From the NCBI GenBank assembly GCA_030247525.1, contig JAOTSC010000002.1, forward strand, positions 571-64,570: a DNA stretch of 64,000 bases, in the 5' to 3' direction. Shown piece after piece: positions 3,793 to 25,541 of this stretch. Position numbers and translations under genes: made by a program. This DNA is from a bacterium. GTDB lineage: Bacteria; Electryoneota; JAOADG01. Positions within the stretch are counted from its first letter, which is position 1, and each line of letters starts with the position of its first letter. The notes below the pieces were generated by a model. The model was not told where the DNA came from, made no database searches, and saw only the letters and a list, made by a program, of their open reading frames with translations.

Positions 3793-3808
3793 CGGCACAG
3801 CTCTTGCA
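3793..3808 (+). promoter_or_regulatory. Sigma-54-type (-24/-12) promoter-like motif upstream of cytochrome cluster A
   Basis: cGGCAC-agctc-TTGCa with GG-N10-GC spacing, ~90 nt upstream of the GTG start at 3898 (RBS AGGAGG 8 nt upstream of the GTG). Confidence 0.35.
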
Positions 3809-3897
3809 CAGCTCAGGTTGTCAAAAAACCAAGCCCTACGTGAATTGGTTCACTTTGTCAAAGTTTTTATTTTACTTGTTTGTTAGGAGGATAATAC

Positions 3898-4548
3898 GTG
3901 AAGTCCACGCTCACCTTCGTGGTGGCAATCCTATGTTTCGCTGGGCTCTCGTTTGCGCAGATTAGCGGCACGCCGCACGATCTCTCTTCCGCTACCAGCG
4001 GTTCCAACGCTTACTACTCCAATCAATCGCAAATCTGCATTTTTTGTCATACGCCACACGCTGCCTCATCCGCTCGCACTCAATTGTGGAATCGCAGCGA
4101 ACCTGCTGGAACATTTCAAGTTTACTCCAGCCCGACGATGAATGCTTTTGATCCAACCGGTCCGATACCCAATGTGACAGGTTCTTCACTGATGTGTTTG
4201 TCCTGTCATGACGGTGTTACTGCATTAAACTCATTGGTCTATAACGGTAGACATGGTGTTCCTCAAATGACAGGTGGAAATACGCTTACCGGACTCGCCA
4301 ATTTGAATGACGCCAGTGGATTAACCAACGATCACCCGGTTTCGATTAATTATGCAACCGCTGCCGCAGCTGATGCTGAATTGCGTCCGATTGGCACTTT
4401 GCCCGGCTGGGCAATCAAAGATGGCAACTCGATTCAATGTTCAAGTTGCCATAATGTTCACTCTTTTGGCGCAACTTCGGACATGCAACCTTTCTTGAAT
4501 GCATCGAAGACGGGTTCCGCACTTTGCTTGCAGTGCCATATTAAGTAA
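3898..4548 (+). CDS. Periplasmic tetraheme c-type cytochrome (doubled-CXXCH family)
   Basis: Signal peptide. Four CxxCH motifs (CIFCHTPH, CLSCHDG, CSSCHNVH, CLQCHIK). CxxCHTPHaaS...LWNR module shared with the next gene and with the N-terminus of the 12-heme protein. Confidence 0.8.
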   Translation: MKSTLTFVVAILCFAGLSFAQISGTPHDLSSATSGSNAYYSNQSQICIFCHTPHAASSARTQLWNRSEPAGTFQVYSSPTMNAFDPTGPIPNVTGSSLMCLSCHDGVTALNSLVYNGRHGVPQMTGGNTLTGLANLNDASGLTNDHPVSINYATAAAADAELRPIGTLPGWAIKDGNSIQCSSCHNVHSFGATSDMQPFLNASKTGSALCLQCHIK

Positions 4549-4631
4549 ACCGGTAGTTTAGCTGCGTCCAGTTCAGTAAGACGAAGCGATCTTAAACGAC
4601 ATAGCTTTTTTTTTTACAGGGAATCAGTGTC

Positions 4632-5384
4632 ATGAAACGTCATTACGTCGGAATCCTAATGGTGGCATTAGCACTTTCTTTGTGCTGTGCGCTAGTTGCA
4701 AATGCCCAAATCGTTGGCACGAAGCACGACTTATCGCTAAACGGCGGTGGATATTGGGCTGGTAACGACCCGGCAAATCAAGTTTGTGTCTATTGCCATA
4801 CGCCCCACGCCGCATCGACGACCCAAAAGCCGTTGTGGAATCGTGCTGCAACCGCAGAAACTTTCATTCCGTACACCAGCTTGTCCTACAATGGTGGAAA
4901 TTACGCAGCCGACCCGACCGGACATCAACCCATGGGTGAATCGAAACTTTGCCTTTCTTGCCATGATGGTATCACGGCACTAAATGCATTACTTCACACC
5001 TATGGTCCCCCCATCCAAATGGTTGGTGGTTTCGACCAATTGGGTGATGTATATTACCCCGGTTCCCCTTACTCTACGGGAATGGGTGCGAACATCGGTG
5101 AAAACTTTCCCGGCGGCGCTGGTTCCGGCCATACGATCAACAACTTAGCAAACGATCACCCGGTTTCGTTTGCGTTCAACAACGCTTTGATTTTGGAAGA
5201 TGCAGGTGGCGGCGCAGCTCAACTGCAGTTACCAGCAACCGGCAGCGCAATCAAACTGTTTGGCACGAATGGCGACCAACTCGAGTGCAGCTCCTGCCAC
5301 AATGTTCACAGCAACACCAACGCACCATTCCTTGCGATGAGCAACAACGGAAGTGCGATCTGTTTAACTTGCCACATTAAGTAG
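4632..5384 (+). CDS. Periplasmic tetraheme c-type cytochrome, tandem paralog of 3898..4548
   Basis: Signal peptide. CVYCHTPH, CLSCHDG, CSSCHNVH, CLTCHIK, with the same motif order and spacing as the upstream gene. Confidence 0.8.
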   Translation: MKRHYVGILMVALALSLCCALVANAQIVGTKHDLSLNGGGYWAGNDPANQVCVYCHTPHAASTTQKPLWNRAATAETFIPYTSLSYNGGNYAADPTGHQPMGESKLCLSCHDGITALNALLHTYGPPIQMVGGFDQLGDVYYPGSPYSTGMGANIGENFPGGAGSGHTINNLANDHPVSFAFNNALILEDAGGGAAQLQLPATGSAIKLFGTNGDQLECSSCHNVHSNTNAPFLAMSNNGSAICLTCHIK

Positions 5385-5419
5385 TCTTAATCGGCTAAGC
5401 ATAGATAGAACTAAGTATT

Positions 5420-7126
5420 GTGAGTACCTCACCCTCTAATATCAGTTACCATCAGAGGGTACTGAATCAAAAAAAGTGCCACTCTCCAGACCTTTGGGGA
5501 GTGGTTCTTTGCTTGATTACATCATTTTTTTTTTGTGTCACGTCGGGAATTGCTCAGCCACGACTGGCATTTCAAGCCGAACTGGAATCCGGTTATCGGA
5601 CAACCCAGAACTTGAACGACCCTTCTTCAGGAAGTAAAGGCAGCGAATTTCTCCACAATTACGGATTTGGGTTGCGTGGGTATATCCTGTCCCCCAACTT
5701 TATATCCTACCGAGCCGGGATGCGGCTTCACCAATCCAATCGAAAGTATGGTGACACCTGGACGATCACCCGCACACTTGATCTTATTGATTTGAACACT
5801 CACGTTTTCCAAAACCGGCCGCTTTCGTTTAAGTTCAATTATCGACGAACACAATCGGACTTCACTTATGGTCGACAGACCGATCGGAAGTACGATAACT
5901 TTGCCGGAGCCGACATTCTCTATCAAAATCCGATACTCCCGTCGATTCAACTCAGTTATCTATACAACTCCACGGAATCCGATAAATATGGAACTGCCGG
6001 CTCGCACATCAGTTCGATTCGATTACAACGCTACACCGATTTGGCGACTGTTAGCGCATTTTTTCTGGATGAACAGCGCCGCGATTTGATTGGCGGTCGA
6101 TTTGCTCGTCACCAGCAAATCCAATTGGATGGACAAGCGAACCTATTCGACCGAACAACCACCTTGACCTCCAACTTCGAGTATGCCGGTTACAACAACA
6201 ATTACCGTTCCACTCGCTTTGGTACCCGGGTGTTAAGCATGCCCAATCCGAAGAACCGGGTGTTAGCACAATATGGCTTTAACACTACTCAAAGTATTGG
6301 TTCCTCAACATACTCAAATGTGCTCCAAGCGGATTACAAACGATTCTTTACCCCGGAGTTGACTGGAACAGTGCGGGGTAGTCTTTTTCGACAGATGCAA
6401 CTCACGAAAACAACCGAAGAAGAATTTGTCAATCGAAGCGTTAGCGCAGGTTCCGAGTATATTTCAGTAAAGCTGCATAACGACAAAACGATGCGCACGA
6501 TTGCCAACGGATTCTTCGATTACGACAAAAGCTCCACCACCGATGACAGGGTAGTGTTTCGCTCTGTTGGCGCTTACCAGATTCAACAACGGTTTACAAC
6601 AAAGTTTGCTTGGTCGAATATGTACACGCTTTCGGGGCGGGTATCGCGTACCCGACAATTGAATGATTACAACGTAAATCATACGTTTGAAAATCAGATG
6701 TCGTTTACCCCAATTCGCGTCGTTTTGCTTCAAAACATGATTACCTTGAAGGATCAAGAGGGGAGACGGTTCACGCGAGGATTTGAGAATCGTAGCAATC
6801 TTGCGTTACTCTTTTCTCATGGGTTTTCGGTTCGTACCGGCTTGATCACTAATGTAACAGTACAACCAGATTACCGACGGGTTGATTATTGGACGAGCAA
6901 TCTTGGATACGAAATCACAAGAAATCTGGTCTGGTCAGCCCAATCTTCCTACACGTTGGACCGGCAGGTAGATGTTGAATTCGGGAAGGTCGAATCGAGT
7001 CTTCGCTATCAATTGAATGAACTTGCACTAAGTCTTCAAGCTGAAGAAAGCATATCTCAAGATCGAAAAGATTTAACTCTATTCGTGAATGCATCGAGAA
7101 AGATCGGTGGTGGCCTTGCGAGATAA
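5420..7126 (+). CDS. Putative outer-membrane beta-barrel (porin-like) protein of the cytochrome cluster
   Basis: N-terminal hydrophobic signal region (VVLCLITSFFFCVTSGIA|Q). 568 aa rich in Y/N/T/S/Q/R/F with alternating amphipathic segments and no cofactor motifs. Sits between the periplasmic and the large multiheme cytochromes. Fold assignment is inferred, not proven; the ORF does not end in an aromatic residue. Confidence 0.4.
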   Translation: MSTSPSNISYHQRVLNQKKCHSPDLWGVVLCLITSFFFCVTSGIAQPRLAFQAELESGYRTTQNLNDPSSGSKGSEFLHNYGFGLRGYILSPNFISYRAGMRLHQSNRKYGDTWTITRTLDLIDLNTHVFQNRPLSFKFNYRRTQSDFTYGRQTDRKYDNFAGADILYQNPILPSIQLSYLYNSTESDKYGTAGSHISSIRLQRYTDLATVSAFFLDEQRRDLIGGRFARHQQIQLDGQANLFDRTTTLTSNFEYAGYNNNYRSTRFGTRVLSMPNPKNRVLAQYGFNTTQSIGSSTYSNVLQADYKRFFTPELTGTVRGSLFRQMQLTKTTEEEFVNRSVSAGSEYISVKLHNDKTMRTIANGFFDYDKSSTTDDRVVFRSVGAYQIQQRFTTKFAWSNMYTLSGRVSRTRQLNDYNVNHTFENQMSFTPIRVVLLQNMITLKDQEGRRFTRGFENRSNLALLFSHGFSVRTGLITNVTVQPDYRRVDYWTSNLGYEITRNLVWSAQSSYTLDRQVDVEFGKVESSLRYQLNELALSLQAEESISQDRKDLTLFVNASRKIGGGLAR

Positions 7127-8159
7127 GCGACATTTCGCATCGATTGCAATAACCCTGCTGGCCGGAGTACTTGTTATTTCGGTTATCGGATGCTTTTCGT
7201 CTCAAGAAGCAGTAATCCGGCAGCCATTGAGCCCGATAGTATGGCCACAACTACCGGAACAAGCCCGTATCCGTTTCGAGTATTCCTTTCAGTCGCCGGA
7301 AGAGCTTGGTGTAAAAAAGGGATTGTTATCTTGGTTAGCAGGAGATTCTAAACAGAATCAGTTGATACAACCGGTTGCCGTGGCAGTGTCCGATGATGAG
7401 ACGATATATGTGGTTGATGTGACGGGTGTATTGTCGTCTTATCAAGTTGCGACGAAAAAGTACCGTCAACAACGATCAACAAAATCGGGATTACTTCATA
7501 CACCAGTTTCGTTAACGTTGGGAAAAAACGACTCCGTGTATTTAGTTGATTCAGAGAGCAAAAAGATTACAGTTTACACAAACAAACTTCATCCCGTTCG
7601 TGAATTGGAAACCGGGTTAGATCGTCCAGCCGGGATTGTTTGGGATAAGTGGTCGAATCGGCTATGGATTGCCGATGCCAAAGGAAATCGAGTTGTCGCA
7701 TTCAATTTGTCCGGCAAAGTAGTTGCCCAGATAGGGGATGGGCTCGATTCATTAACAAAGTTGAATACCCCAACACATCTATGCATCGACTCATTGGGAA
7801 TTTATGTAACCGATGCCTACAACTTTCAGGTGAAAAAGTATTCATTTGCGGGTACACTGACACAAACGTTTGGTAAGTTAGGTACTAATTCCGGAGCTTT
7901 TTCGCGACCGAAGGGAATTGCCATTGACTCTGACTCGAATCTGTATGTCGTCGATGCATTATTCGGTAATGTGCAAATTTTCAATCCGGAAGGAAAATTG
8001 TTGCTCTTTTTCGGAACAACGGGCGTAACCGAGCCGGGCAACTTCAATCTACCGAACGGAATCAGTATCGATCATCGTAACCGGATCTACGTTGCTGACA
8101 CCCATCACGGGATGATCCAGGTGTTTCAGTATCTGGCAAAACAGGCGACGACAAAATGA
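7089..8159 (+). CDS. NHL-repeat (six-bladed beta-propeller) lipoprotein
   Basis: Lipoprotein-type signal (VISVIGC). Repeated NHL-like units (YVVD/YVTD/YVAD ... G.IQVF). Paralog of 20577..21626 (both end ...VQVFQY). Start uncertain because the ORF overlaps the preceding gene. Confidence 0.7.
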   Translation: MHRERSVVALRDKRHFASIAITLLAGVLVISVIGCFSSQEAVIRQPLSPIVWPQLPEQARIRFEYSFQSPEELGVKKGLLSWLAGDSKQNQLIQPVAVAVSDDETIYVVDVTGVLSSYQVATKKYRQQRSTKSGLLHTPVSLTLGKNDSVYLVDSESKKITVYTNKLHPVRELETGLDRPAGIVWDKWSNRLWIADAKGNRVVAFNLSGKVVAQIGDGLDSLTKLNTPTHLCIDSLGIYVTDAYNFQVKKYSFAGTLTQTFGKLGTNSGAFSRPKGIAIDSDSNLYVVDALFGNVQIFNPEGKLLLFFGTTGVTEPGNFNLPNGISIDHRNRIYVADTHHGMIQVFQYLAKQATTK

Positions 8160-8245
8160 TGAACGACTCGAAAATAAAGTTTCAGACTCGATTTCAAGTT
8201 GTTACTGTAACCGCTGTTTGTTCGTTGTCTTGTGGGGAGGAGCCG

Positions 8246-9949
8246 ATGGGACATCCAAGCAAGCTTACCATCCCGAGAATGTTGGCTCGCATCTTCCCGA
8301 TTATCGTCTCAATGATGATATCACTCGCATTAGCACAGCCGGAAGCGGTGACCAATACAAAGCACAACCTGTCAAGTTCCGGGACTGGCAACATTCGCGC
8401 GGTGGCTGAAACTCAGGTTTGCATATTCTGTCACACCCCGCACGGTGCTTCTTCGGAAACGCCGCTTTGGAATCGCAACGCAGTAACTACCACGTTCAGT
8501 ATTTATCCGTCGGGTGGTTCGATGCAATCGACGGTTGGACAACCCAACGGCTCAAGTCGACTCTGTTTGTCGTGCCATGATGGCACTGCCGCGATTGGTG
8601 TGGTTCGTAGTCAAGCGGGACCGATTTCACTATTGGGAACAACTGTTGGTGGGATGTTACCGGCTGGTACAAGTAATTTGGGGGTGTCGCTTACCGACGA
8701 TCATCCGATTTCATTTACTCCCTCATTGCTTGATCCTGAAATTCGAAATCCGCTGCCTACCGATCCCGTTCATCTTGATCAATCCGGTCAAGTGCAATGC
8801 CGAAGTTGCCACAATCCCCACAACAACCAGTATGACGACTTCTTGGTAGCGACTACAAATCGGGGGACGTTGTGCACTACTTGTCATATCGAAAGCGGAT
8901 GGGATGTCTCTTCCCATGGCAATCCACAAAATCCATTATTCAATCAATTGACAGAGCAAGCATGTAATAGTTGCCACGTCCAACATACGGCAGCATCTGG
9001 TCCAAGGTTACTGCGAGCGGTAGAAGAAAATCTCTGTTTAAGTTGCCACGATGGTACCCAAAATGCGAGTTGGGAAACTTCTGGTGCTGTGAATATGATT
9101 ACGGTTTTCCAAAAGACTAGCCGACATAGTGTTTCGATGAATGCCGGGGTACACAATCCAGGCGAAGGTCCCTTGAACTCGATACCAACTCCTTCGAGCT
9201 ATTTACCGGAAGAATCGCCGATTGCCCAACGCCATGTAGAATGTGCCGATTGCCATAACTCTCATGCATCTACAACCGAAGACCAAGTTGGACAAATCAA
9301 TGGGGCAATTCGGAATGTGTGGGGTGTATCGGCAGGCGGCACAAAAGTTGATCCTGCGATTTTTGAGTACCAGATTTGCTTTAAGTGTCATGGAGACTCA
9401 CGCAATCTCCCGACGAATCAAACGAATAAGCGGCTGGAGTTCGCCATTACGAATGCCAGCTTTCATCCAGTGGTCGCTCCCGGTACGAGTTCGGATGTTC
9501 CCGGTTTGCTTGCACCATGGACGACATCTTCGACGATGAATTGTACCGACTGCCATAACAGCGATGAAGATGGTTCGCCACGTGGACCCCATGGTTCGAT
9601 ATACAGCCCATTGTTAAAACGAAACTATTATACTGGAACACGTGAACCGGAAACTGCGTCACTGTATGCATCATGTTATGAGTGCCATGATCGAACGAGT
9701 CTGTACAATCCTTCGGTTTCTCATTTCGGTGAGCATTCTCGACATGTGGTTTCCCAACAATTTTCCTGTTTCCTTTGTCACAGTTCTCACGGCAGCGCAA
9801 ACAACCGACACCTTATCCGGTTTGATAGCAATAATTTGAATATCTCACCCTCATCGAGTGGAAGATTAGAATATTTGCCCAGTGCGGATGGGCACGGAAC
9901 TTGCTTCCTGACTTGTCACGACCATAATCATAATCCGGGTATTTACTGA
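8246..9949 (+). CDS. Multiheme c-type cytochrome with 11 CxxCH plus 1 CxxxCH motif (about 12 hemes)
   Basis: ORF opens at 8156, but ATG 8246 is preceded by a GGGGAGGAG RBS and gives a clean signal peptide (MGHPSKLTIPRMLARIFPIIVSMMISLALA). Motifs: CIFCH, CLSCH, CRSCH, CTTCH, CNSCH, CLSCH, CADCH, CFKCH, CTDCH, CYECH, CFLCH and C-terminal CFLTCH (CX3CH). Its TGA stop overlaps the ATG of the next gene. Confidence 0.8.
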   Translation: MGHPSKLTIPRMLARIFPIIVSMMISLALAQPEAVTNTKHNLSSSGTGNIRAVAETQVCIFCHTPHGASSETPLWNRNAVTTTFSIYPSGGSMQSTVGQPNGSSRLCLSCHDGTAAIGVVRSQAGPISLLGTTVGGMLPAGTSNLGVSLTDDHPISFTPSLLDPEIRNPLPTDPVHLDQSGQVQCRSCHNPHNNQYDDFLVATTNRGTLCTTCHIESGWDVSSHGNPQNPLFNQLTEQACNSCHVQHTAASGPRLLRAVEENLCLSCHDGTQNASWETSGAVNMITVFQKTSRHSVSMNAGVHNPGEGPLNSIPTPSSYLPEESPIAQRHVECADCHNSHASTTEDQVGQINGAIRNVWGVSAGGTKVDPAIFEYQICFKCHGDSRNLPTNQTNKRLEFAITNASFHPVVAPGTSSDVPGLLAPWTTSSTMNCTDCHNSDEDGSPRGPHGSIYSPLLKRNYYTGTREPETASLYASCYECHDRTSLYNPSVSHFGEHSRHVVSQQFSCFLCHSSHGSANNRHLIRFDSNNLNISPSSSGRLEYLPSADGHGTCFLTCHDHNHNPGIY

Positions 9950-11241
9950 TGGCATTTCGAATGATGAAACGGGTAGTTATCGTTGCAATCACTCTTCTGA
10001 TCGGGTACTTAACTCTATCGGGAGCTGGCTCTGCACCTTTGCTACAGGTGATGTATCCTTCTAAAAGCAAGATGGAAGTGTCGACGCCTCATCATTATCT
10101 CGTGGGAGATGTCGATACGTTTACGGTAACCCGATTGGAATTGTCGCGCACTACCGAGCGGATTGATCAAATGACAGCAAAGTCCGGTTCCATTCGTAGT
10201 GAGTTTGTGAAAAAGGTTAGTGGATTGTTTTCCCGTGATTTCCAGATTACTAATTTTGAAATCACAGTGTTTTCCTTGAAACCGAATACGAAAGAAGTGA
10301 AGCATTCGATTTACTTCCCCGCACAGAATCGAGTCAACCGGGATGCTTTTTGGCAATCACACGAGTTTCAATCGATTTATGAGAAGGTTTTTAAGGATTC
10401 GTTGTTCCGTGGTCTCAATTTTGTCGCGAAAGGTAATCTTGTTTCCCATGTCGAGTTATCAAAACGGCGGTTGCTGGACAAACTCGGTTCAAAATTTGTC
10501 ATGCGGGTCGATTTATCACCCGGACAAAATGATTATACGCTTCGTGCGATGGACAATTCCGACCGAATTTTAGAGGAACACCGTTACTCATTCCTGTATA
10601 AACCAGCAGTGAGCGAAGAAATCAAGAGTTTACCGGGATACGAAGCGGTGAAGTTTCACACGCCGGAACAAGAACAAAACTGTGCCAGTTGCCACCGGAT
10701 GAAACCGAATGCATCGGAGTTGACTTCGAATACGGCAACTGTCCGATTGTGTTATCCTTGCCATGTCTGGGTGACTGCCAGTACCAATGTTCACTATCCC
10801 ATTACCGAATGGAATTGTTTCTACTGTCACAGTGCACCAAAATCCGGTGAATCCGGGTTCGATGTTTCCGATAAACGCAAAAGCGATCAAACCTGTTTTG
10901 AGTGTCACGAAGACCTGAAGGATGCTTTGGCGAAAACCGATTTTCCCCATGCTCCTGCTGGTTCCGGTGATTGTCTTATTTGCCATAACCCGCACGGCAG
11001 CGATTTTCGCGGGATGTCAGTCATGAAGCCGAACGACCTTTGTCTTTCCTGCCATGAGAAGAAATACAGCAAGGATCACCCTGTGATGATGCATCCCGTG
11101 CAGGGCGTTCGTGACAGCAAGTCTCCGAAACAAGAACTATCGTGCGTAAGCTGCCACAATCCGCACTATGGAAGTAATGAGAAACTCTTTTATAAAGCGA
11201 CCGGAACCTTCCAGCTTTGTCAGGAGTGCCACAAAAAATGA
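9949..11241 (+). CDS. Octaheme c-type cytochrome, membrane-anchored or secreted
   Basis: N-terminal hydrophobic anchor/signal. Eight CxxCH motifs (CASCH, CYPCH, CFYCH, CFECH, CLICHNPH, CLSCH, CVSCHNPH, CQECH). Translationally coupled to the upstream cytochrome (ATGA overlap). Confidence 0.8.
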   Translation: MAFRMMKRVVIVAITLLIGYLTLSGAGSAPLLQVMYPSKSKMEVSTPHHYLVGDVDTFTVTRLELSRTTERIDQMTAKSGSIRSEFVKKVSGLFSRDFQITNFEITVFSLKPNTKEVKHSIYFPAQNRVNRDAFWQSHEFQSIYEKVFKDSLFRGLNFVAKGNLVSHVELSKRRLLDKLGSKFVMRVDLSPGQNDYTLRAMDNSDRILEEHRYSFLYKPAVSEEIKSLPGYEAVKFHTPEQEQNCASCHRMKPNASELTSNTATVRLCYPCHVWVTASTNVHYPITEWNCFYCHSAPKSGESGFDVSDKRKSDQTCFECHEDLKDALAKTDFPHAPAGSGDCLICHNPHGSDFRGMSVMKPNDLCLSCHEKKYSKDHPVMMHPVQGVRDSKSPKQELSCVSCHNPHYGSNEKLFYKATGTFQLCQECHKK

Positions 11242-13385
11242 ACGTACGTCTGTACAAACATCGAATTGATCAATGGCGCGACTGTCATTCCGTTCCGCTC
11301 AACTTGTCTATCCTTGTTTTGTTGTTGATTCTCGGTATTGTGCCAGCCAATGCACAAACCCTTTTCGGACAAAGTGGTGCGCTTTCCACTCCTTCCGCTG
11401 ACACCTATCCTGCAGGAAATTTCTCGGTTGGAAGTTACTTTCGTTCTTCATGTTTTCAGCCAGAACGGTTCGACGCTACCAGTGTTTATTTGATTACTGG
11501 ATTAAGTCCAACCACCGAAGCGAGTTTTTCTTTCCCGGGAATTTGGGGTAACAAAACACCACCTGCTCATTTTGAAATCCCGGCGCAAATCAGCTTCAAG
11601 CAAAAAGTGTATTCCTTACCGAAAAACCGCTTCCGCTTTGCGGTAGAAGGAATCATGCAACGCCGCCCGATGGGGGAAGATTCCGTATATGATCAAAGTG
11701 CAAATTGGGGTCTCGGTGTAATAGGCAGCAGTACATTTGGTCGAAATACCTATCATCTGTTTTACAGTCGCATGGTGTCTCGCGGCAACAAGAAGAGTCC
11801 ACAGGATTTTGCCGGCGCTGGATTGGATCGCTCGATTTCCGAGAAATTGGTTTTCAATTCCGATATTTATGTCGTGTCCGAGAATTTCTTTACCCAGCGC
11901 AAAGAAATCACTACGATGATGGGTTTTCGTTATCGGGTGAACTCCTATTTCCATGCAATTGGTGGCGGCGGTGTCGGTATTACCAAGGGTAGCAATGATT
12001 GGCAGTATTTCCTCGGACTTTCGTTTACAACCGACATCAAGAAATCCATCTATACAACCTTAACAGAAACGGTTCCACCCCCACCACCGCAAAGCGATCT
12101 TTACGAACAGCCCGGTTACGACATTGCCGCAGGTATTCCACCACCCGGATCACCGGAAATCATTGAAGCTCCGCATAAGAATGGCAATGGGAATGGTAAT
12201 GGCAACGGTAAGAAGAAACCACCATTTATTTTTACCCGGTTGTTCTTCGATGAGAATTCATTTGAGCTAAGTGAATTCGAGCAACAGAACCTCCAGTTAA
12301 TTTCGCGGGACATTAATAAAATCGGTCGCGACCAGTGTTTAACGGTTATCGGTCACTCCGATCCCACCGGTTCGAATCAAGAGAACTATGCCATTGCGAT
12401 GACTCGTGCGTTAACCGTTGCGGGAAAGATTATCGACAGTGCCGGGTTATCGCCGGAGAGCGTCATTATTGGCGGCGCGGGCGAAGTAATGTTGTCGGAT
12501 CGAAGAACGACATCGAATGCGTTGCAGATGAACCGGCGTGTCGAACTTCGCACCTGTAATCGGTTAAGTGTGCAATTGGACACGATACCTGAAGATAGTT
12601 GTACCATTCGTCAAGCAATTCAATGGCGTTCAGGCTCACACGGTATAGCAAAAGGTTTCAAACAGCTTTCCGTACAAATGGCGAACTGTCTGACGAAACT
12701 GGGCGAATTGCAACCAGAAGAATTCTATATCATCTCACCGAAGTGGGATCCCCAAGTTGATTATCGGACAACGGTTTACCGGACAGCGCTATTTTGGTTG
12801 TACACTGTGCAAACAAAGCAAATAGCACCCGAACGTTGTTTTCTTAAACTTCAGCCCGAATTGAATTTTGCCGGTGAAACTGAGAAGAATGCAGCATCGG
12901 AAGTTGGAATTGACGCACAACTCATTCATGTTGAAACTGGGTCAGACTCAGCGACCGTTCGGATTCGCTTTACCAATCAACAAAAAAGTGTCAAACGCTC
13001 GGTTTATATTGTAGTCACAGCGAATATCGATGGCAAACAAATTTCCGTTGTAGGTGATACACTACCTGAAGATGCGATTCCCGAGTACAATACGGGAAAA
13101 CGGTATCAATTCAAACACCAAATCGAACGAGAGTTTTCATTTCCACTTACTACGCAGGGAAGCAGTAAACCGGACTTCCAAGTGTACTTCTACGATGCAA
13201 ATGGAAAAACCCTTGGTACTACGCAAGCACTAAAATCGGAAGGGTTATCGCCACGATGGGCGAAGCGGTTTGCCGAAGCGCTTCATCTATCCGAAAAGGC
13301 AGTCGAACAACCGAGTGACTTGGAAATCAGTATTCGTAAGTATCGCAGCAACGATGTTAGAGATTTTAATACCGCAGAAAAGTGA
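11238..13385 (+). CDS. OmpA-family outer-membrane protein with NG-repeat and Pro-rich linker
   Basis: Signal peptide (LSILVLLLILGIVPANAQ). Central PPPPP and NGNGNGNGNG low-complexity linker. OmpA/MotB-like C-domain motif (LTVIGHSDPTGSNQENYAIAMTRALTV...NRRVELR). Start taken at the ATG just after the upstream stop. Confidence 0.65.
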   Translation: MNVRLYKHRIDQWRDCHSVPLNLSILVLLLILGIVPANAQTLFGQSGALSTPSADTYPAGNFSVGSYFRSSCFQPERFDATSVYLITGLSPTTEASFSFPGIWGNKTPPAHFEIPAQISFKQKVYSLPKNRFRFAVEGIMQRRPMGEDSVYDQSANWGLGVIGSSTFGRNTYHLFYSRMVSRGNKKSPQDFAGAGLDRSISEKLVFNSDIYVVSENFFTQRKEITTMMGFRYRVNSYFHAIGGGGVGITKGSNDWQYFLGLSFTTDIKKSIYTTLTETVPPPPPQSDLYEQPGYDIAAGIPPPGSPEIIEAPHKNGNGNGNGNGKKKPPFIFTRLFFDENSFELSEFEQQNLQLISRDINKIGRDQCLTVIGHSDPTGSNQENYAIAMTRALTVAGKIIDSAGLSPESVIIGGAGEVMLSDRRTTSNALQMNRRVELRTCNRLSVQLDTIPEDSCTIRQAIQWRSGSHGIAKGFKQLSVQMANCLTKLGELQPEEFYIISPKWDPQVDYRTTVYRTALFWLYTVQTKQIAPERCFLKLQPELNFAGETEKNAASEVGIDAQLIHVETGSDSATVRIRFTNQQKSVKRSVYIVVTANIDGKQISVVGDTLPEDAIPEYNTGKRYQFKHQIEREFSFPLTTQGSSKPDFQVYFYDANGKTLGTTQALKSEGLSPRWAKRFAEALHLSEKAVEQPSDLEISIRKYRSNDVRDFNTAEK

Positions 13386-13392
13386 GGATTGG

Positions 13393-13911
13393 ATGTTTTG
13401 TATCCCCCGTAACTGGATGTTTCGTTTGTTCGCTATTGTTGTTTTAATGATGACTGTAAGTATTGTGATGGCATACCCGCAGGGACATCCGATGGCGGGT
13501 GGTTTAAAGAAGTCGGCGGATAGCACGAAAAGTATGGATTCGATCCCCCAAACACCGCTCCCGACATTCGATAAAGTTTGGATTTCGATTCGGAAAAGTA
13601 ACGGCGACAGTTTAGCGCCAATGGCAATGATGCCGAATGAACTCTATGCACTAAAAGGAACCGATGTCTTGTTACGTGTTACCGATTGCTATAGTCATTG
13701 GATGATTAAAGGAAAAGCGGTAAACTACTCGAAAGAGGAAAAGAACCCGGCGGTGAAAGTCGAGATACTTAAGGGTGAGACGGTATTGTATACCCGTTGG
13801 GCATTCAAAAATATCCCGTTCTTTGGAATGAACAACATGATGGGACACACCCAATCGGGTGATAATCAACTCTATTTCACTTTGACAAAATATGAAGGGA
13901 TGAAGTGGTAA
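13393..13911 (+). CDS. Hypothetical secreted protein, last gene of cytochrome cluster A
   Basis: ORF opens at 13270 but overlaps the upstream gene. ATG 13393 gives a signal-anchor (MFCIPRNWMFRLFAIVVLMMTVSIVMAYP). No recognisable domain. Confidence 0.4.
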   Translation: MFCIPRNWMFRLFAIVVLMMTVSIVMAYPQGHPMAGGLKKSADSTKSMDSIPQTPLPTFDKVWISIRKSNGDSLAPMAMMPNELYALKGTDVLLRVTDCYSHWMIKGKAVNYSKEEKNPAVKVEILKGETVLYTRWAFKNIPFFGMNNMMGHTQSGDNQLYFTLTKYEGMKW

Positions 13912-15728: not shown

Positions 15729-17129
15729 TTGTGGACAGGGGTGAGCGTGTCGGATTACAAAATCAAATTGTTGATCATCGACGATGAAAAGTTGATCGGC
15801 TGGTCGTTAGCCAAACAATTTGAAAAGGACGGTTATCAGACTTTTACAGCTTTGTCGGGGGAAGAAGGACTCGAAGTGTTCCGTCGGGAATCCCCGGAAG
15901 TGGTGTTCCTCGATAACCGGTTACCCAAGAAATCGGGATTGGAAGTCCTGAAAGAAATTCGACATCACTCACAATCCACCATCGTCATCTTTATGACTGC
16001 CTACGGATCTACCGAGACCGCCGTCGAAGCTATGAAACTCGGTGCCTACGATTATGTGAACAAACCGTTTCAATACAACGATGTCAATTCAATTGTCGAA
16101 CAAGCAGTTAAGGCAAACAAACTCGACGCGGAAGTTCTGGATATCCGTCGTAAGCTTATGAGCCGCTACGGTTTTTCCAGCATCATCGGCGAATCGAGCC
16201 AGATGATGCACATCTTTGAGATTATCCGAAAGATAACACATTCAGAAGCTTCGACAGTTTTGATTTATGGCGAATCCGGCACCGGCAAGGAAGTAGTCGC
16301 CCGGGCGATTCATTACGAATCAAATCGTTTCCAGAAACCATTTGTAGCGATTAACTGTGCAGCATTACCGGAAACCCTATTAGAGAGCGAGTTGTTTGGC
16401 TATGAGCGTGGTGCATTTACCGACGCCAAGCAGATGAAACGCGGACAGTTCGAGTTGGCGGAGGGGGGCACCCTGCTCCTCGATGAAATCGGTGAACTCA
16501 GTATCCAAATGCAGGTGAAATTACTTAGAGCGTTGGAAACCCGAACATTTAAACGACTGGGTGGTACACAGGACACCAAAATCGATGTCCGGGTCATAGC
16601 AGCGACGAATCGTGACCTTCAAGCAGCAATAGCTGAAGGGCGGTTCCGGCAGGATCTTTATTTTCGTCTGAAAGTCGTCACGGTGCAGCTTCCCCCTCTG
16701 CGAGAACGTCCCGAAGATATTCTGATACTGTCTACTTACTTCATTAATCACTTCAACAGGGAATTTTCCAAAAAAGTTACCGGACTTGATGAACCAGCTC
16801 GATGTGCAATGCTTGCGTACGAGTGGCCGGGAAATGTCCGTGAGCTCAAGAATGTGATTGAACATAGTCTCGTACTCGAAAATGATACCCTCATCCGGTT
16901 AGAGCATCTTCCAATAGAAATCCTTGGCAAAAAGCCTCAAAAAGTAGATCCCAGCGCTGTCCAATTAGAGTTTCCGGTCACCGGATTCCCTTTAGAGGAA
17001 ATCGAGAAGCTGGCAATCCAGAAAGCACTTAACTACGCCAACGGCAACCAATCAAAAGCGGCAGCTTTGCTTTCAGTCACCCGTGACACAATTCGTTACA
17101 AAATGAAGAAGTTCGGATTACTCGATTGA
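15729..17129 (+). CDS. Sigma-54-dependent response regulator (NtrC family: REC + AAA+ + Fis-type HTH)
   Basis: REC domain (LLIIDDE...FLDNRLP...), sigma-54 activator motifs (GESGTGKE, GAFTDA, ESELFGYERGAFT, LLDEIGEL) and C-terminal HTH. Confidence 0.85.
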   Translation: MWTGVSVSDYKIKLLIIDDEKLIGWSLAKQFEKDGYQTFTALSGEEGLEVFRRESPEVVFLDNRLPKKSGLEVLKEIRHHSQSTIVIFMTAYGSTETAVEAMKLGAYDYVNKPFQYNDVNSIVEQAVKANKLDAEVLDIRRKLMSRYGFSSIIGESSQMMHIFEIIRKITHSEASTVLIYGESGTGKEVVARAIHYESNRFQKPFVAINCAALPETLLESELFGYERGAFTDAKQMKRGQFELAEGGTLLLDEIGELSIQMQVKLLRALETRTFKRLGGTQDTKIDVRVIAATNRDLQAAIAEGRFRQDLYFRLKVVTVQLPPLRERPEDILILSTYFINHFNREFSKKVTGLDEPARCAMLAYEWPGNVRELKNVIEHSLVLENDTLIRLEHLPIEILGKKPQKVDPSAVQLEFPVTGFPLEEIEKLAIQKALNYANGNQSKAAALLSVTRDTIRYKMKKFGLLD

Positions 17130-17398: not shown

Positions 17399-17414
17399 TG
17401 GCACACTCTTTGCC
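17399..17414 (+). promoter_or_regulatory. Sigma-54 promoter (TGGCAC-N5-TTGC) upstream of cytochrome cluster B
   Basis: Exact -24/-12 consensus TGGCACactctTTGCc, ~58 nt upstream of ATG 17472 and immediately downstream of the sigma-54 activator gene. Confidence 0.5.
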
Positions 17415-17471: not shown

Positions 17472-18710
17472 ATGTTATATCACTCGAAACTCTCACGCAC
17501 CGGAACGATTTGCATCGTTGCACTCATGGTCGCCGTGACCATCACGTCTGCCCTTGCGCTTCCTTCCTTTATCCATGCCACTCGCACCCTTGACGGGATT
17601 ACCGTCCAGCCGGAGCGGGTCGCTGTAGCTCCCAATGGCATAGTTTATCTGTCCGAACCTCAAAGCAACCGGATCTTAGCTGTTTCGACCGAGGGGATCG
17701 TTGTGGGTTCGATTCCGGTTGCTAATGTAATCGCTGTTGGTGTTCTTCCGAATGGCTCACTACTTGCCAGCCACGGAACCCAAGTCGATTGCTACAATGC
17801 GAATGGCACTTTTCAATTCTCATTGGGTAACGGGATCGGCGAATTCAACAAGGCAGGCGAGATTGCTGTTGCAACCGATGGTTCGATCTATGTGACCGAT
17901 ACCCGCCAACACGTTGTCAAAGTATACCAACCTGATGGAACTTTCCGGTTTGCATTCGGCAGCCGTGGTTCCGCCAACGGACAATTTGTATTTCCGACCG
18001 GCATCGCCCTAAGCGCAAACGAAACCGAAGTTTTTGTTGCCGATCAAGGCAATAGCCGCATCAACGTATATAGCCGCACCGGCAGCTATCTTCGTAGTTT
18101 CGGCCGTGCAACCTATCAAGTCGGTTCAAGCTGGGTATTTGATGGTACGTTTACCCGCGTTCAGGGAATTTCGGTCGATCAACTGAATCGACTCTACATT
18201 TCTGATTTGTATCAGAATGATGTACAAGTTCTTTCAGCCCAAGGCGAATTCTTAGGCAGAATCGTTCCTGGAACCAGTCTTCCCTTCGCTCATCCTGCAG
18301 ATTTGGTCGTAAGTGGTAACCAACTCTATATCCTTTCGACTTTCTCGAATCAAGTGTTCGCATATTCCATCGATGGCGTTACCAGTGTCAACAATCCAGC
18401 CGCCGCGATTGTTTCGCACTTTGCGCTGAATAACAATTATCCCAACCCCTTTAATGGTACGACTCGAATTCCGTTCGCCCTTAAGCAAAACGGTAAAGTA
18501 TCGTTGACCATTTGGAACGTACTGGGTCAGCAAGTCGGTACTCTCATCAATGCGAATATGAATGCGGGATACCATGAAGTCGTTTGGAACACTACCTCCG
18601 GCAGCTACGGCGCAGTGACCAGCGGTGTTTATTATTGCAAACTTTCCGTTGTCGACGAATCCGGAACCTCTCTTTACCAGTCGACCGGTAAAATGCTCTT
18701 TTTGAAGTAA
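17472..18710 (+). CDS. NHL-repeat beta-propeller protein with T9SS C-terminal sorting domain
   Basis: Signal peptide. NHL-like repeats (YVTD..., VFVAD..., YISD...). C-terminal NNYPNPFNGTTRIPFALKQNGKVSLTIWNVLGQQVGTL (T9SS CTD). Confidence 0.7.
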   Translation: MLYHSKLSRTGTICIVALMVAVTITSALALPSFIHATRTLDGITVQPERVAVAPNGIVYLSEPQSNRILAVSTEGIVVGSIPVANVIAVGVLPNGSLLASHGTQVDCYNANGTFQFSLGNGIGEFNKAGEIAVATDGSIYVTDTRQHVVKVYQPDGTFRFAFGSRGSANGQFVFPTGIALSANETEVFVADQGNSRINVYSRTGSYLRSFGRATYQVGSSWVFDGTFTRVQGISVDQLNRLYISDLYQNDVQVLSAQGEFLGRIVPGTSLPFAHPADLVVSGNQLYILSTFSNQVFAYSIDGVTSVNNPAAAIVSHFALNNNYPNPFNGTTRIPFALKQNGKVSLTIWNVLGQQVGTLINANMNAGYHEVVWNTTSGSYGAVTSGVYYCKLSVVDESGTSLYQSTGKMLFLK

Positions 18711-18734: not shown

Positions 18735-20381
18735 ATGGAGCGATTCTCAATGTTTTTGAAAAAACATCTTTTCATAGCGATTGCGGTGGTATGCGCATTG
18801 ACTTCTGTTGCCCTTTCGGAAGTAAATGAGCTTCAAGCTCCGCACGATGCGACGAACGCGATGGCATGCGCCAGTTGCCACGTACCTTATAATACAGTGC
18901 CACAACCGGTTCCGGAGAATTGGTTAACCACTTCGGTTTGCCAAAGCTGCCATACCAGCGGTGGTGTTGCTTCCAACATGAAAACTCACGTCGCCAATGC
19001 CGATACCGTATGGTGCCAGACTTGCCACGATCCGCACATGCACCAGACGACGTATCCCCGTTGGTATGTCAAGAATCAGATCATCACTCCGAATAGCGGC
19101 GCTCGTCCGTCGGTAATTCGTGATTCGCTTGACCTGATGCACGGCGCCACTGGTGTGGTTCAACCCTATGATGGTGTTTGTGAAACCTGCCACACTACTA
19201 CCCCGATTTTCCGCAACAATGCTTCGGGTCTGCACCCGACTACTGCTGCGTTGATGACCCATGAAGGTTCGGACAAGTGCACGAACTGTCACCAGCACAA
19301 GAACGGCTTCCAGTCTTCGACCAGTGCAAACACCTGTTTCGCTTGCCACTCCGCTTCCACGAATTCAGTCCGCGATACATCGTTGCATTACACCGCGTCG
19401 AATATGTACAGCCGTTTCGATACGCTGCGCACCACTTCTCACCCGGTTCGCAAGCTCTATGACAATGGACGCTTTGTGTTCGCCAAGGTGGAAGGCAATG
19501 CCGCAATCACGACCAAACTACTTCGTACGCCGTCATGGTTTTCTGGTACATCTTTAACCAGTTCATCCATGATCACCTGTACGGATTGCCACGGTGACTC
19601 TGCCGCAACCGCTTCGAAGGGTATGCATGGCTTGAGCTATCCAATGATGGAAGAGACGACCGCAGTTGCACTTCAGTTGCGTGCCAGTTTACGCCTCGGT
19701 ATGAATCAGGAATACGGTCCCAACTACGATCTGACTGGTAACGCTCTGTGCTATGCTTGCCATACCCCGGAATACTATCGACTGAGCGCTTCTGCTCGTC
19801 CGACCGGTTTCATGCGTTCAGACTCGAATCGTTGGTCCCGTCACTATTCGCACGTCGTGTACCACAATGCGAATACTCAGGAACGTCAGGAAAACTGCGT
19901 GACTTGTCACGGTGTCCATGGTGGCGCCACGACAGCACAAGATACTACGTTCCCAATAAATCGTGCATACGGTCGCACAGGCTTAATCCGTTGGTCGAAG
20001 CAAGCAACCGGTTTGGTGTTTGAACACGGTCAGACTGGTCCGGACTCCATTACCGTTCCAGACTCTACCTTGAAGACTGCGTTAACCGGCGGTTCGCCGC
20101 AAATCGCAACTGGTTATAAATCAGCTGCGTACGGATATTTCAAGTTCAAGAACAAGACCTATGATCGCACAATTCCACCGTTGTTACAAACAATGTGGAA
20201 TCTACGAGATACCGCTATCGTGAACGTAGCTGGTGATACCATTGCTGATTACTACCTTGGCTTCTGCTACGTCAATTGCCATACTGGTAAGGATCTTCCA
20301 ATGGTTGCTGGTGACACAGTTGGTACAAAGCATCCGAATAATCACTACGGTCGCTCTGTTTCCTATCGCATTTGGCGATAA
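18735..20381 (+). CDS. Multiheme c-type cytochrome with 9 CxxCH plus 1 CxxxCH motif
   Basis: Signal peptide. CASCH, CQSCH, CQTCH, CETCH, CTNCH, CFACH, CTDCH, CYACH, CVTCH and C-terminal CYVNCH (CX3CH). Confidence 0.8.
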   Translation: MERFSMFLKKHLFIAIAVVCALTSVALSEVNELQAPHDATNAMACASCHVPYNTVPQPVPENWLTTSVCQSCHTSGGVASNMKTHVANADTVWCQTCHDPHMHQTTYPRWYVKNQIITPNSGARPSVIRDSLDLMHGATGVVQPYDGVCETCHTTTPIFRNNASGLHPTTAALMTHEGSDKCTNCHQHKNGFQSSTSANTCFACHSASTNSVRDTSLHYTASNMYSRFDTLRTTSHPVRKLYDNGRFVFAKVEGNAAITTKLLRTPSWFSGTSLTSSSMITCTDCHGDSAATASKGMHGLSYPMMEETTAVALQLRASLRLGMNQEYGPNYDLTGNALCYACHTPEYYRLSASARPTGFMRSDSNRWSRHYSHVVYHNANTQERQENCVTCHGVHGGATTAQDTTFPINRAYGRTGLIRWSKQATGLVFEHGQTGPDSITVPDSTLKTALTGGSPQIATGYKSAAYGYFKFKNKTYDRTIPPLLQTMWNLRDTAIVNVAGDTIADYYLGFCYVNCHTGKDLPMVAGDTVGTKHPNNHYGRSVSYRIWR

Positions 20382-20576: not shown

Positions 20577-21626
20577 ATGAATCCGGCAAAGACTTTTTTG
20601 CTTTTCACCTTGTTTACCTCACTCACACTTTTTTCTGTGGGTTGCGCTCCCAAACAGGCAATCAAACCCGATTTAGTCTGGCCGTCGGCACCGGAAAAGC
20701 CAAGGATAAAATTTCTACGAAGCATCCAAGGTAAGAGCGATTTCACTACATCCAAGATGGATGCTTTCAAGAAGACGTTAGCGGGTGAAACATCATTAGA
20801 ACGGGTAGTGAAGCCCTACGGATTAGCGATTGACAGCAAGGGACGCCTACTTGTAGCTGATGCCGGAAATCGTTGTGTGTTGGTGTTCGATGAGAATGCG
20901 AAGAAATCAGGCGACATCCTCACTTATATCGGAACAAGCGGTGCCGGTCAATTGACAGAGCCGGCAGGAGTTGCGGTCGACGATGAGGATCGAGTTTACG
21001 TGACCGATGTTCGACTAAATGCAGTGTTTGTTTTCGATGCAGAAGGAAACTTACTTCGCAATATCAAAGACACAGTAGCGTTTCAACGTCCTGCAGGTAT
21101 CGCCTATAACAAAGTCACACAGGAGATTATCGTCGTCGATACGAAAGCGTATCACGCGAAATGCTTTCGGAAAGATGGCTCGTTCGTTCGGACGATTGGA
21201 ACAAAAGGAAGCCGGGAAGGTGAGTTTAATCTTCCCAGTAACATCGTTTGTGACACCGATGGGTACATTTATATCGTCGATACAATGAATTTCCGGGTAC
21301 AGGTTTTCGATAAAGATGGTAAATTTGTTTCGACCTTTGGACAAGCGGACAACGTACCCGGCAGTTTTTCGCGGCCACGTGGCATCACTGTCGACAGCGA
21401 TAACAACATCTATGTCGCCGACGCGGCTTTCGATAACATACAGATATTTCAGCGTGACGGGTCATTGCTTTTATACTTCGGGGCGGCTGGTAAAGGGGAT
21501 GGACAGTTTCAGTTACCGGCGGGTTTATGTTTCGATCAAAAAAACCGCTTGTATGTCGCCGACCAGTACAATGGTCGGGTACAGGTTTTCCAATACATCC
21601 AATACAAAGCGGAAACGGGCAAATAG
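20577..21626 (+). CDS. NHL-repeat lipoprotein (paralog of 7089..8159)
   Basis: Lipobox (FSVGC). Six NHL-like repeats. C-terminus ...RVQVFQYIQYKAETGK parallels the paralog. Confidence 0.7.
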   Translation: MNPAKTFLLFTLFTSLTLFSVGCAPKQAIKPDLVWPSAPEKPRIKFLRSIQGKSDFTTSKMDAFKKTLAGETSLERVVKPYGLAIDSKGRLLVADAGNRCVLVFDENAKKSGDILTYIGTSGAGQLTEPAGVAVDDEDRVYVTDVRLNAVFVFDAEGNLLRNIKDTVAFQRPAGIAYNKVTQEIIVVDTKAYHAKCFRKDGSFVRTIGTKGSREGEFNLPSNIVCDTDGYIYIVDTMNFRVQVFDKDGKFVSTFGQADNVPGSFSRPRGITVDSDNNIYVADAAFDNIQIFQRDGSLLLYFGAAGKGDGQFQLPAGLCFDQKNRLYVADQYNGRVQVFQYIQYKAETGK

Positions 21627-21640
21627 TCTTTAGTACTACT

Positions 21641-23017: not shown

Positions 23018-23373
23018 GACGGTTTACGTCGATTCGACAATAGGTGCAGCTGGCTGCTTGGCACAAGGTCGTGATTATTTGTCAACAAATCCAGTCGCTG
23101 ATTTCACAACCAATTGCTATCAGAAGCACAGCCGGCAACGGTAGATAGGATTAGCAGATACCGTACCAAAGCTTTGTCAGTGGTTGTTTGACTCTGGCTA
23201 ATCCCGAGTTACATACGTAAACATCGGCTCGGTAGTATTTCTGCAACTTTTCGATGATTTAGCACCTCACACTGGTAAGAATCTGTGATTGCAACTTCGT
23301 TTGTGGCGAAATGTTTTTTTCTCGCAAACGGAGTTCAATTGCAATGAGAACCAATTGCAATCGTGAGGATGTC

Positions 23374-25533: not shown

Positions 25534-25541
25534 GTTCCCGG

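Follow-up and report, generated by a model that had tools for sequence, protein, structure and literature searches.

The DNA analysed here (the window) is a 64-kb stretch of contig JAOTSC010000002.1, positions 571 to 64,570 of the forward strand, in GenBank assembly GCA_030247525.1, from a bacterium of the Electryoneota. Near its start we find a cluster of genes for multihaem cytochromes, two of them related to the nanowire protein OmcE, together with genes for a predicted outer-membrane beta-barrel, NHL beta-propeller proteins, an OmpA-domain protein and a kinase/regulator pair (Table 1). A six-frame scan for CxxCH motifs was applied to the entire window, besides open reading frame (ORF) prediction and Pfam and NCBIfam searches.

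Gene content and extent of the cluster

A preliminary description of this DNA had listed eight genes running in one direction from 3898 to 13911, and all eight ORFs were found at these coordinates. Among them, Pfam and NCBIfam recognised the doubled-CXXCH cytochromes, the NHL propeller (7089-8159) and the OmpA domain (11217-13385) that had been named; the lipobox of the NHL lipoprotein, ending in VIGC, is present as well. No family in either collection matched 5420-7126 or 13270-13911. For the latter small ORF, for the N-terminal domain of the octahaem cytochrome and for the flanking domains of the OmpA protein, Pfam gave no family even at relaxed thresholds.

The four cytochrome genes among the eight contain 4 + 4 + 12 + 8 = 28 haem motifs (27 CxxCH and one CxxxCH, CFLTCH); the 32 motifs in 10 kb counted earlier were thus an overestimate. 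The six-frame scan found 41 CxxCH motifs in the 64 kb, with 27 in these four genes and nine in 18735-20381. Since so many of the motifs fall in five genes, the haem-motif density is far above background and not a matter of chance.

Two gene junctions had been described as overlaps. The longest ORF of the 12-haem cytochrome, here called c12, does overlap the stop of NHL lipoprotein A (ATGA). However, a strong ribosome-binding site, GGGGAGGAG, precedes the ATG at 8246, which is also the NCBI start; from this ATG the protein has 567 amino acids (aa) and its gene lies 86 nucleotides (nt) beyond the lipoprotein stop, so that the overlap is a property of the longest ORF and not of the start with a ribosome-binding site. 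At the junction of c12 with the 8-haem gene (c8) the overlap is real, 1 nt long, though the sequence is TGATG and not ATGA.

Relatives of the cluster were collected by searching with an alignment of the OmcE module (the tetrahaem unit discussed below) against one genome per GTDB species; at least 594 relatives were found and 80 loci were kept, cited by numbers with the prefix L. In the closest genome locus, L009, with an OmcE-like protein 60% identical to that of the window, homologues of 17472, 18735 and 20577 are located directly upstream of the omcE-like genes; in L004 and L007 homologues of the downstream genes are likewise associated with omcE-like genes. Because of this adjacency we count the downstream genes to ~23 kb in the same system. 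The cluster, then, does not end at 13911, as had been thought, and runs on through a kinase, a regulator, an NHL gene, the cytochrome c9, one more NHL gene and a ResB gene to ~21626-23017.

Table 1. Features of the cluster (positions in the window)
Feature	Position	Strand	Evidence or remark
Sigma-54-type -24/-12 site cGGCACagctcTTGC	3793..3807	+	One mismatch to TGGCAC-N5-TTGC; intergenic, 91 nt upstream of 3898
OmcE-family tetrahaem, short paralogue, 216 aa	3898..4548	+	Sec signal peptide; 4 CxxCH and 4 conserved distal His
OmcE-family tetrahaem, long paralogue, 250 aa	4632..5384	+	Match to 7tfs_A; ~25-aa conserved insertion
Predicted 28-strand plug-less outer-membrane beta-barrel, ~520 aa mature (568-aa ORF)	5420..7126	+	AlphaFold2 prediction
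NHL beta-propeller lipoprotein A	7089..8159	+	NHL E 2.6e-25; lipobox ...VISVIGC
Dodecahaem cytochrome c12, 597-aa longest ORF, likely start ATG 8246	8156..9949	+	11 CxxCH and 1 CxxxCH
Octahaem c8: ~230-aa N-terminal domain and MtrA/DmsE-related 8-haem domain	9949..11241	+	8 CxxCH
OmpA-domain protein, 722 aa	11217..13385	+	Signal peptide, Pro-rich linker, OmpA domain 343-445 (E 1.9e-11)
Small predicted secreted protein, likely start further downstream	13270..13911	+	Hydrophobic N-terminus; no family
Sensor histidine kinase, CLACH (CxxCH) in periplasmic loop	14097..15587	+	HAMP/HisKA/HATPase
NtrC-type sigma-54-dependent response regulator	15729..17129	+	Response_reg, Sigma54_activat E 4.8e-71, HTH_8
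Perfect sigma-54 -24/-12 consensus TGGCACactctTTGC	17399..17413	+	Intergenic, 59 nt upstream of second operon (17472)
NHL beta-propeller with C-terminal sorting domain of the type IX secretion system	17472..18710	+	NHL E 2.4e-15; Por_Secre_tail E 6.2e-6
Decahaem-candidate cytochrome c9	18735..20381	+	9 CxxCH and CYVNCH
NHL beta-propeller lipoprotein B	20577..21626	+	NHL E 3.1e-37; lipobox ...FSVGC
ResB-like protein (system II cytochrome c maturation)	21641..23017	-	ResB E 6.1e-26; convergent with cluster

OmcE-like cytochromes, barrel and propellers

The two tetrahaem proteins had been taken for paralogous periplasmic cytochromes. They are indeed paralogues (48% identity, 4 CxxCH each) and belong to distinct conserved types, but both are homologues of OmcE, a subunit of an extracellular filament. 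The short paralogue matches 7tfs_A, the OmcE filament of Geobacter sulfurreducens, over its full length (E 2.8e-33, 43% identity) and 9yuq_N, the OmcE of Desulfuromonas soudanensis, with E 1.1e-25 and 37% identity; for the long paralogue the respective E-values are 1.3e-30, again over the full length, and 4.8e-24. 7TFS is the G. sulfurreducens OmcE nanowire (GSU0618); 9YUQ is the bundled OmcE nanowire of D. soudanensis WTL (10.1101/2025.10.22.684050). The OmcE proteins of these two species, both proven nanowire subunits, share 41% identity with each other.

In a joint alignment of the two tetrahaem proteins, the N-terminal module of c12 and the OmcE proteins of G. sulfurreducens and D. soudanensis, eight Cys and eight His are invariant; the published OmcE signature consists of four CxxCH motifs and four other haem-ligand His (Petersen et al., 10.1101/2025.10.22.684050). 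The mature N-termini start a few residues ahead of the first conserved His, as in OmcE. Judged by full-length homology and the presence of all haem ligands, both tetrahaem proteins are members of the OmcE family. They have Sec signals and no tail of the type IX secretion system (T9SS).

The insertion of the long paralogue (residues ~138-165) has the pattern VGGFDQLGDVYYPG...GMG.NIGE / VGGFDQLGDVYYPGSPY..GMG.NIGENFPG. It is kept in the orthologues of L001, L005, L007 and L009, is better conserved than the remainder of the protein and is without equivalent in the solved OmcE subunits; it may be an interaction loop.

A third OmcE module forms residues 49-244 of c12 (7tfs_A E 2.2e-27; 42% identity to the first paralogue), in agreement with an earlier remark that the tetrahaem module is reused at the N-terminus of the 12-haem protein. 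The remaining ~350 residues carry eight further haem sites, and no solved structure matches this C-terminal domain by sequence or fold: the sole Foldseek match of the c12 model in the PDB is 7tfs, at the N-terminus only. Alignments with 38 and 47 homologues, drawn from many phyla, show the 11 CxxCH motifs, the C-terminal CxxxCH (CFLTCH) and 14 further His to be invariant. As all 12 motifs are invariant, the c12 family is dodecahaem, and the extra His are two more than bis-His ligation of 12 haems needs. A search at E<=1e-20 gave at least 7545 protein clusters for this very large family, whose named members have only generic names: 'hypothetical protein', 'predicted CXXCH cytochrome family protein' and 'cytochrome c3 family protein'. 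The c12 of 'bacterium BMS3Bbin04', described as a member of the FCB group, is 55% identical to that of the window. In relatives the c12 gene is usually immediately 3' of the NHL lipoprotein gene, with starts and stops that touch or overlap in many loci, and it is always near a gene for a barrel of the 28-strand type.

The product of 5420-7126 is confidently predicted as an outer-membrane barrel, as had been supposed: from a 14-sequence alignment AlphaFold2 produced a model with a predicted local distance difference test (pLDDT) score of 90.9, with 28 antiparallel strands, short turns and no plug domain. With standard barrel geometry and an assumed strand tilt of ~40 degrees, the C-alpha diameter of a barrel with 28 strands comes to ~5 nm; the pore of 28-strand UetC of the uet cluster (see below) was modelled at roughly 5 nm (10.1101/2022.05.06.490989; PMC10734462). 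According to the model, such a pore could pass or hold a folded holo-cytochrome of ~20 kDa, a width that matters because haem is attached in the periplasm. A word-index search with the barrel sequence retrieved only itself and one relative of 54% identity, and a HMMER profile search of 1.84 billion representatives gave only 16 matches at E<=0.001. The 650-720-aa proteins found in other clusters are homologous to it (hhalign 98.9%, E 1.4e-17, 504 columns); in all, 64 of 88 loci have a homologue of the barrel. The barrel of the window is a rare compact subfamily of the barrel family that occurs in clusters with OmcE-like and 12-haem cytochromes.

The gene for lipoprotein A is in relatives always located between the barrel and 12-haem genes. 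Lipoprotein B represents the propeller type with the widest conservation; its match to the propeller in L017, from a Geobacter metagenome-assembled genome (MAG), has E 1.7e-61. The third propeller, 17472-18710, has a homologue in L009 that is the neighbour of the c9 homologue, both encoded directly before the omcE-like genes. T9SS sorting domains (Por_Secre_tail) were detected in five window proteins (5-1540, 17472-18710, 34160-36028, 48304-50445 and, on the minus strand, 61281-63947), in line with the earlier statement that other secreted proteins of this genome use the T9SS; a FlgD Ig-like domain was seen in 28675-29505. The host thus relies heavily on the T9SS, yet no cytochrome carries its tag. 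These sorting domains, together with the c12 of 'bacterium BMS3Bbin04', suggest a host from a lineage of the FCB group; for its glucan phosphorylase the nearest homologues are 69-70% identical and equally unclassified, and those at 57% identity and below belong to mixed phyla. Sec-type signal peptides without a lipobox Cys were found in c12, c8 and c9, and among the cluster genes only NHL proteins have lipoboxes.

In c8, residues 240-411 are related to 6r2q_A, the MtrA of the Mtr complex (E 6e-12), and the protein is homologous to the octahaem cytochrome of L017, a classical Geobacter-type omcE locus (E 8e-42). Cytochrome c9 is weakly related to residues 408-579 of c12 (BLASTP E 5e-6) and has homologues inside the clusters of L007 and L009. 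The OmpA domain is of the peptidoglycan-binding type and matches Pal-like structures, with flanks of no known family on both its N- and C-terminal sides; a homologue of the protein is encoded 3' of c8 in L005 and L009.

The sensor loop of the kinase (~residues 30-185) shows a match to Mcp40H-20_sensor that is below cut-off (E 5.7e-4). This family, we assume, was derived from c-haem chemoreceptor sensor domains of Geobacter, and the kinase is a candidate c-haem redox sensor. The TGGCACactctTTGC site is the sole perfect TGGCAC-N5-TTGC in the 64-kb window, where by our calculation ~0.12 would be expected by chance. Sigma-54-type sites (GGCAC-N5-TTGC) precede the first omcE-like gene by 50-140 nt in related loci of several phyla (L001, L007, L008, L012, L022, L025, L026 and L046); Zixibacteria, Phycisphaerae and the clade of the window are among these, and several of the sites are perfect. 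In L010, L012, L018, L035 and L044 (Acidobacteriota, Chlorobiota, Calditrichota and Deltaproteobacteria) clusters are flanked by a kinase homologue with a single CxxCH together with the regulator, and homologues of the NtrC-type regulator are near clusters in 15 loci of several phyla. Judged by these sites, the cluster is apparently under sigma-54 control; the kinase/sigma-54 regulator pair and the sites recur beside related clusters in several phyla and are not specific to the variant seen here. One further sigma-54-type site was noted at 9890-9904, just upstream of c8 and inside the 3' end of c12. Scans for sigma-70 promoters and terminators returned fewer sites than in shuffled sequence.

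As to the surroundings of the cluster, a secreted 576-aa protein without family (1593-3323) is encoded immediately upstream, and a 740-aa protein with CBM9 and DUF5916 domains (23311-25533) just beyond the ResB gene. It is followed by a 2-kb stretch (25540-27550) of lower G+C content (0.43) and without an ORF of 150 aa or more; tRNA and Rfam scans found nothing in the 64-kb window, this stretch included.

Related clusters and known systems

On contigs whose barrels are 17-54% identical to that of the window we saw the same succession of small cytochrome(s), barrel, NHL protein, ~560-aa cytochrome, ~425-aa cytochrome and OmpA protein, an order that holds in all informative relatives. A module recurring in the loci consists of genes for an OmcE-like tetrahaem cytochrome, an NHL protein, a small pentahaem cytochrome, a 650-720-aa ORF ending in ...R-x-F, an NHL protein and c12. 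The quartet of OmcE-like protein, NHL protein, homologous barrel and c12 was found together in 38 of the 80 genome loci, distributed over about a dozen phylum-level groups. According to record titles these are Planctomycetota, Acidobacteriota, Bacteroidota, Ignavibacteriota, Calditrichota, Zixibacteria, Chlorobiota, Gemmatimonadota, Poribacteria, Alpha-, Beta- and Gammaproteobacteria and Geobacter. Clusters of omcE have been reported from five phyla only (Petersen et al., 10.1101/2025.10.22.684050), and our literature search found no paper linking OmcE to FCB/PVC phyla. Of the loci, only L011 comes from a cultured strain, Geothrix fermentans DSM 14018; another belongs to a MAG with the label Ignavibacterium album.

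The composition of the loci varies. In most other phyla a pentahaem cytochrome of ~190-230 aa is encoded between the first NHL gene and the barrel, and a cytochrome with 13-14 CxxCH is often encoded after or near the 12-haem gene (L016, L022, L025, L031, L033, L044, L072, L073 and others). Neither of these two occurs in the clade of the window, where the MtrA-like octahaem and the OmpA protein take their place. In four loci of Acidobacteriota (L010, L011, L023 and L027) the omcE-like genes adjoin ~590-600-aa ORFs that match neither barrel profile and that in the last three end in ...W(F)DT...W(R) or similar; 7-haem relatives of c12 are nearby, as is a 42-CxxCH cytochrome in L023 and L027. They may represent a third type of cluster, with another kind of barrel.

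By its published definition the omcE cluster of Desulfuromonadia comprises OmcE, a large beta-barrel and two each of multihaem cytochromes and beta-propeller lipoproteins, and it is often located beside resB/ccsB (10.1101/2025.10.22.684050). The window has c12, c8 and c9, the NHL lipoproteins 7089 and 20577, two OmcE-like genes and the 28-strand barrel, and it passes the neighbour filter of Petersen et al. (a large barrel and a beta-propeller lipoprotein beside OmcE). In L017 the order is ResB, CcsB, decahaem, octahaem, NHL, OmcE, an 806-aa protein and glycosyltransferases, in agreement with Petersen et al. Common to both types of cluster are the tetrahaem OmcE subunit, NHL propeller lipoproteins, a c8-type octahaem, a large gene in the barrel position and ResB nearby. 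The window differs in gene order, in having two conserved OmcE paralogues instead of one, and in three additional components: the 12-haem cytochrome that includes an OmcE module, the anchor of the OmpA type and the propeller with the T9SS tag. It also lacks the glycosylation island, and its host, probably of the FCB group, is outside the five phyla reported.

The second system to be compared is uetABCDEFGHIJ of Ca. Tenderia electrophaga and some Gallionella, with tetrahaem UetA, the barrel UetC of 28 predicted strands and NHL proteins UetH and UetI encoded directly before UetJ, a cytochrome with 11 CXXCH, and with ccsAB alongside (10.1101/2022.05.06.490989; PMC10734462). The likeness is one of composition only and covers the tetrahaem, the barrel of 28 strands, the pair of NHL proteins, the cytochrome with 11 CXXCH and the system II maturation genes. 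The uet cluster has in addition a peptidyl-prolyl isomerase (UetB), trihaem c7 cytochromes (UetD/E/G) and a cupredoxin (UetF), domains that Pfam, including relaxed thresholds, did not find between 3.8 and 23 kb. Specific to the window are the MtrA-like octahaem, the OmpA protein, the second OmcE paralogue and the dedicated kinase/sigma-54 regulator; besides, UetJ has 11 CXXCH, while the window family has an invariant 12th site, CxxxCH, and is dodecahaem. In a gammaproteobacterial locus with the protein families of the window (L039) we saw two trihaem cytochromes with three CxxCH each, encoded between the tetrahaem and the barrel, which can be read as c7-like and resembling UetD/E/G. Given these cytochromes and the shared parts list, Uet is probably a member of the same cluster family.

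Two clusters of Desulfovibrio ferrophilus IS5, DFE_0448-0451 and DFE_0461-0465, share by gene content the NHL and multihaem cytochrome genes, though no porin or barrel gene is apparent in them (PMC5815863; PMC9769857). NHL partners are thus a defining part of the omcE, uet and DFE clusters and not, as had been suggested, a feature that sets the window apart. What does distinguish this variant is the rare compact barrel subfamily, the OmpA-type anchor and the T9SS-exported propeller.

Possible function and alternatives

We consider it likely that this region encodes the central part of an outer-membrane machine for electron transfer, of the OmcE type and probably the Uet type, which seems to be controlled by sigma-54. 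The less specific statement, that it encodes an extracellular electron-transfer machine of the OmcE or the Uet type, can be made with high confidence. For actual filament formation by the OmcE-like proteins we see even chances, while the idea that c12 is the filament base is tentative and rather doubtful.

One could picture such a machine as follows. In the periplasm, system II maturation (ResB) would attach the haem, and the folded OmcE-like holo-proteins would then reach the surface through the wide barrel or sit mounted on it; we propose this route because, in a T9SS-rich genome, these proteins have Sec signals and no T9SS tail. The propeller lipoproteins may act as assembly or scaffold factors. 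Outside the cell the OmcE-like proteins would probably polymerise into an insulated wire of haems like that of OmcE, a His of one subunit ligating a haem of another. The best candidate for a barrel-spanning element or filament base is c12: its OmcE module might dock on the polymer, with the 8-haem tail extending the haem chain toward the periplasm, where the MtrA-like octahaem c8 would pass electrons on or off. The OmpA protein may tie the complex to peptidoglycan. The haem of the kinase could sense the redox state of the periplasm, and the sigma-54 activator would turn on both operons.

Several observations weigh against this picture. OmcE-like tetrahaem proteins are very common, with at least 594 matches among GTDB species representatives, and as the module is also fused within c12, homology alone does not imply polymerisation. 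Both solved OmcE filaments come from Desulfuromonadia, whose cluster order differs (10.1101/2025.10.22.684050), and no filament is known from any cluster of the window's type. The AlphaFold2 model of c12 is moderate (pLDDT 68.5) and low in the OmcE module. A comparison of the barrel with the 806-aa protein in the barrel position of L017 detected no homology (hhalign probability 2.7%), although with this single-sequence target a very remote relationship is possible. The T9SS tail of 17472-18710 is just under the Pfam cut-off (26.9 versus 27 bits), the sigma-54 sites are consensus matches only, and the roles of the NHL, c12, c8 and OmpA proteins were deduced from context.

The direction of electron flow, mineral reduction or uptake, is not readable from sequence. 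With the same architecture, electrons could flow inward, from Fe(II), sulfide minerals, cathodes or a partner cell; we regard this as possible, somewhat below an even chance. The parts of the cluster correspond to those of uet, down to the maturation genes, and L039 has the c7-like trihaem cytochromes as well. Also, the D. ferrophilus clusters are induced under electron-donor limitation (PMC5815863; PMC9769857), and many carriers of the quartet (Planctomycetota, Bacteroidota and Gammaproteobacteria) are not known metal reducers. On the other hand, the likeness to Tenderia is one of composition, haem chains are reversible in principle, and the window has no oxidase, carbon-fixation or reverse-electron-flow gene to indicate direction; OmcE of Geobacter is linked to Fe(III) oxide reduction.

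The preliminary description had drawn a parallel to the porin-cytochrome conduits Pcc of Geobacter and MtrCAB of Shewanella. In a conduit of this kind the tetrahaem proteins would be monomeric periplasmic shuttles, other cytochromes would be placed in and outside the barrel, and no polymer would be made. Part of the parallel stands: a barrel and several multihaem cytochromes for extracellular electron transfer are encoded in one operon, the haem domain of c8 is a distant relative of MtrA, and the structural neighbours of the barrel include MtrB. Of the findings that the description itself had named as refuting it, namely a soluble or non-barrel product of 5420-7126, catalytic reductase cytochromes and a gene order lost in relatives, none was made. 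It also fits a conduit that tetrahaem proteins with Sec signals only have the periplasm as default destination, and that the OmcE module can act as a non-polymeric domain, as the c12 fusion demonstrates.

The specific tests for Mtr and Pcc failed, however. Scores for TIGR03508 (DmsE/MtrA) are at most 76.5 bits, the value of c8, against a cut-off of 192; for TIGR03507 (OmcA/MtrC) at most 24.4 against 209; and for the decahaem model of the GSU2203 family at most 68.8 against 325. Pfam gave no MtrB/PioB match for the barrel, which has 28 strands where MtrB has 26 and is wider than needed for one haem wire, and c8 has eight haems and not ten. Unlike Pcc with OmcB and Mtr with MtrC, the window has no lipoprotein cytochrome, and its OmcE-type subunits and NHL propellers are found in neither Mtr nor Pcc. 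The tetrahaem identity to G. sulfurreducens OmcE is on a par with that of the second proven subunit, with all haem ligands kept, and the window agrees part for part with the published definition of the omcE cluster. A classic conduit is therefore unlikely; not Pcc or Mtr but the omcE cluster of Desulfuromonadia and uet of Ca. Tenderia are the known systems closest to the window.

It is hardly credible that the cytochromes form a multihaem enzyme complex in the periplasm, of the type that reduces nitrite, hydroxylamine, sulfite or tetrathionate, and that the barrel, NHL and OmpA genes are neighbours without relation to it. This reading was rejected: NCBIfam matches to NrfB, NrfH and octahaem tetrathionate reductase exist, all weak and 5- to 20-fold under cut-off, the cluster cytochromes have no CxxCK or other catalytic-haem signature, the conserved non-motif His suffice for bis-His ligation of every haem, and the barrel, NHL and cytochrome genes stay adjacent in about a dozen phyla.

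How cells export and anchor cytochrome nanowires, and how they start and stop them, is not yet understood in the field, and the Desulfuromonadia omcE operons encode no candidate for a base or tip (Petersen et al., 10.1101/2025.10.22.684050). If the OmcE-type machine is the right interpretation, the window presents a compact and complete machinery far from Geobacter, in which an OmcE module fused to a longer haem chain could be the missing base. One could speculate further that c12, seated in the barrel, caps the open haem of the polymer and wires the filament to the periplasm, and that barrel-mounted cytochrome wires, with Uet as one instance, are near-universal in Gram-negatives; we think this less probable than not by a good measure. 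The argument for such a near-universal organelle, and against a Geobacter speciality, is that c12, barrel, NHL and OmcE-like proteins co-occur in about a dozen phylum-level groups.

Of greater interest, in our opinion, is how broadly and uniformly the quartet occurs across phyla, along with the OmcE module fused in c12. The window also suggests that the omcE nanowire and uet uptake clusters, treated separately so far, are one widespread family. Assembly of such a machine could be tested in cultured carriers such as Geothrix fermentans DSM 14018. If the suggestion is true, the marker set of OmcE-like protein, NHL protein, 28-strand-type barrel and c12 would flag electroactive potential in many uncultured phyla.

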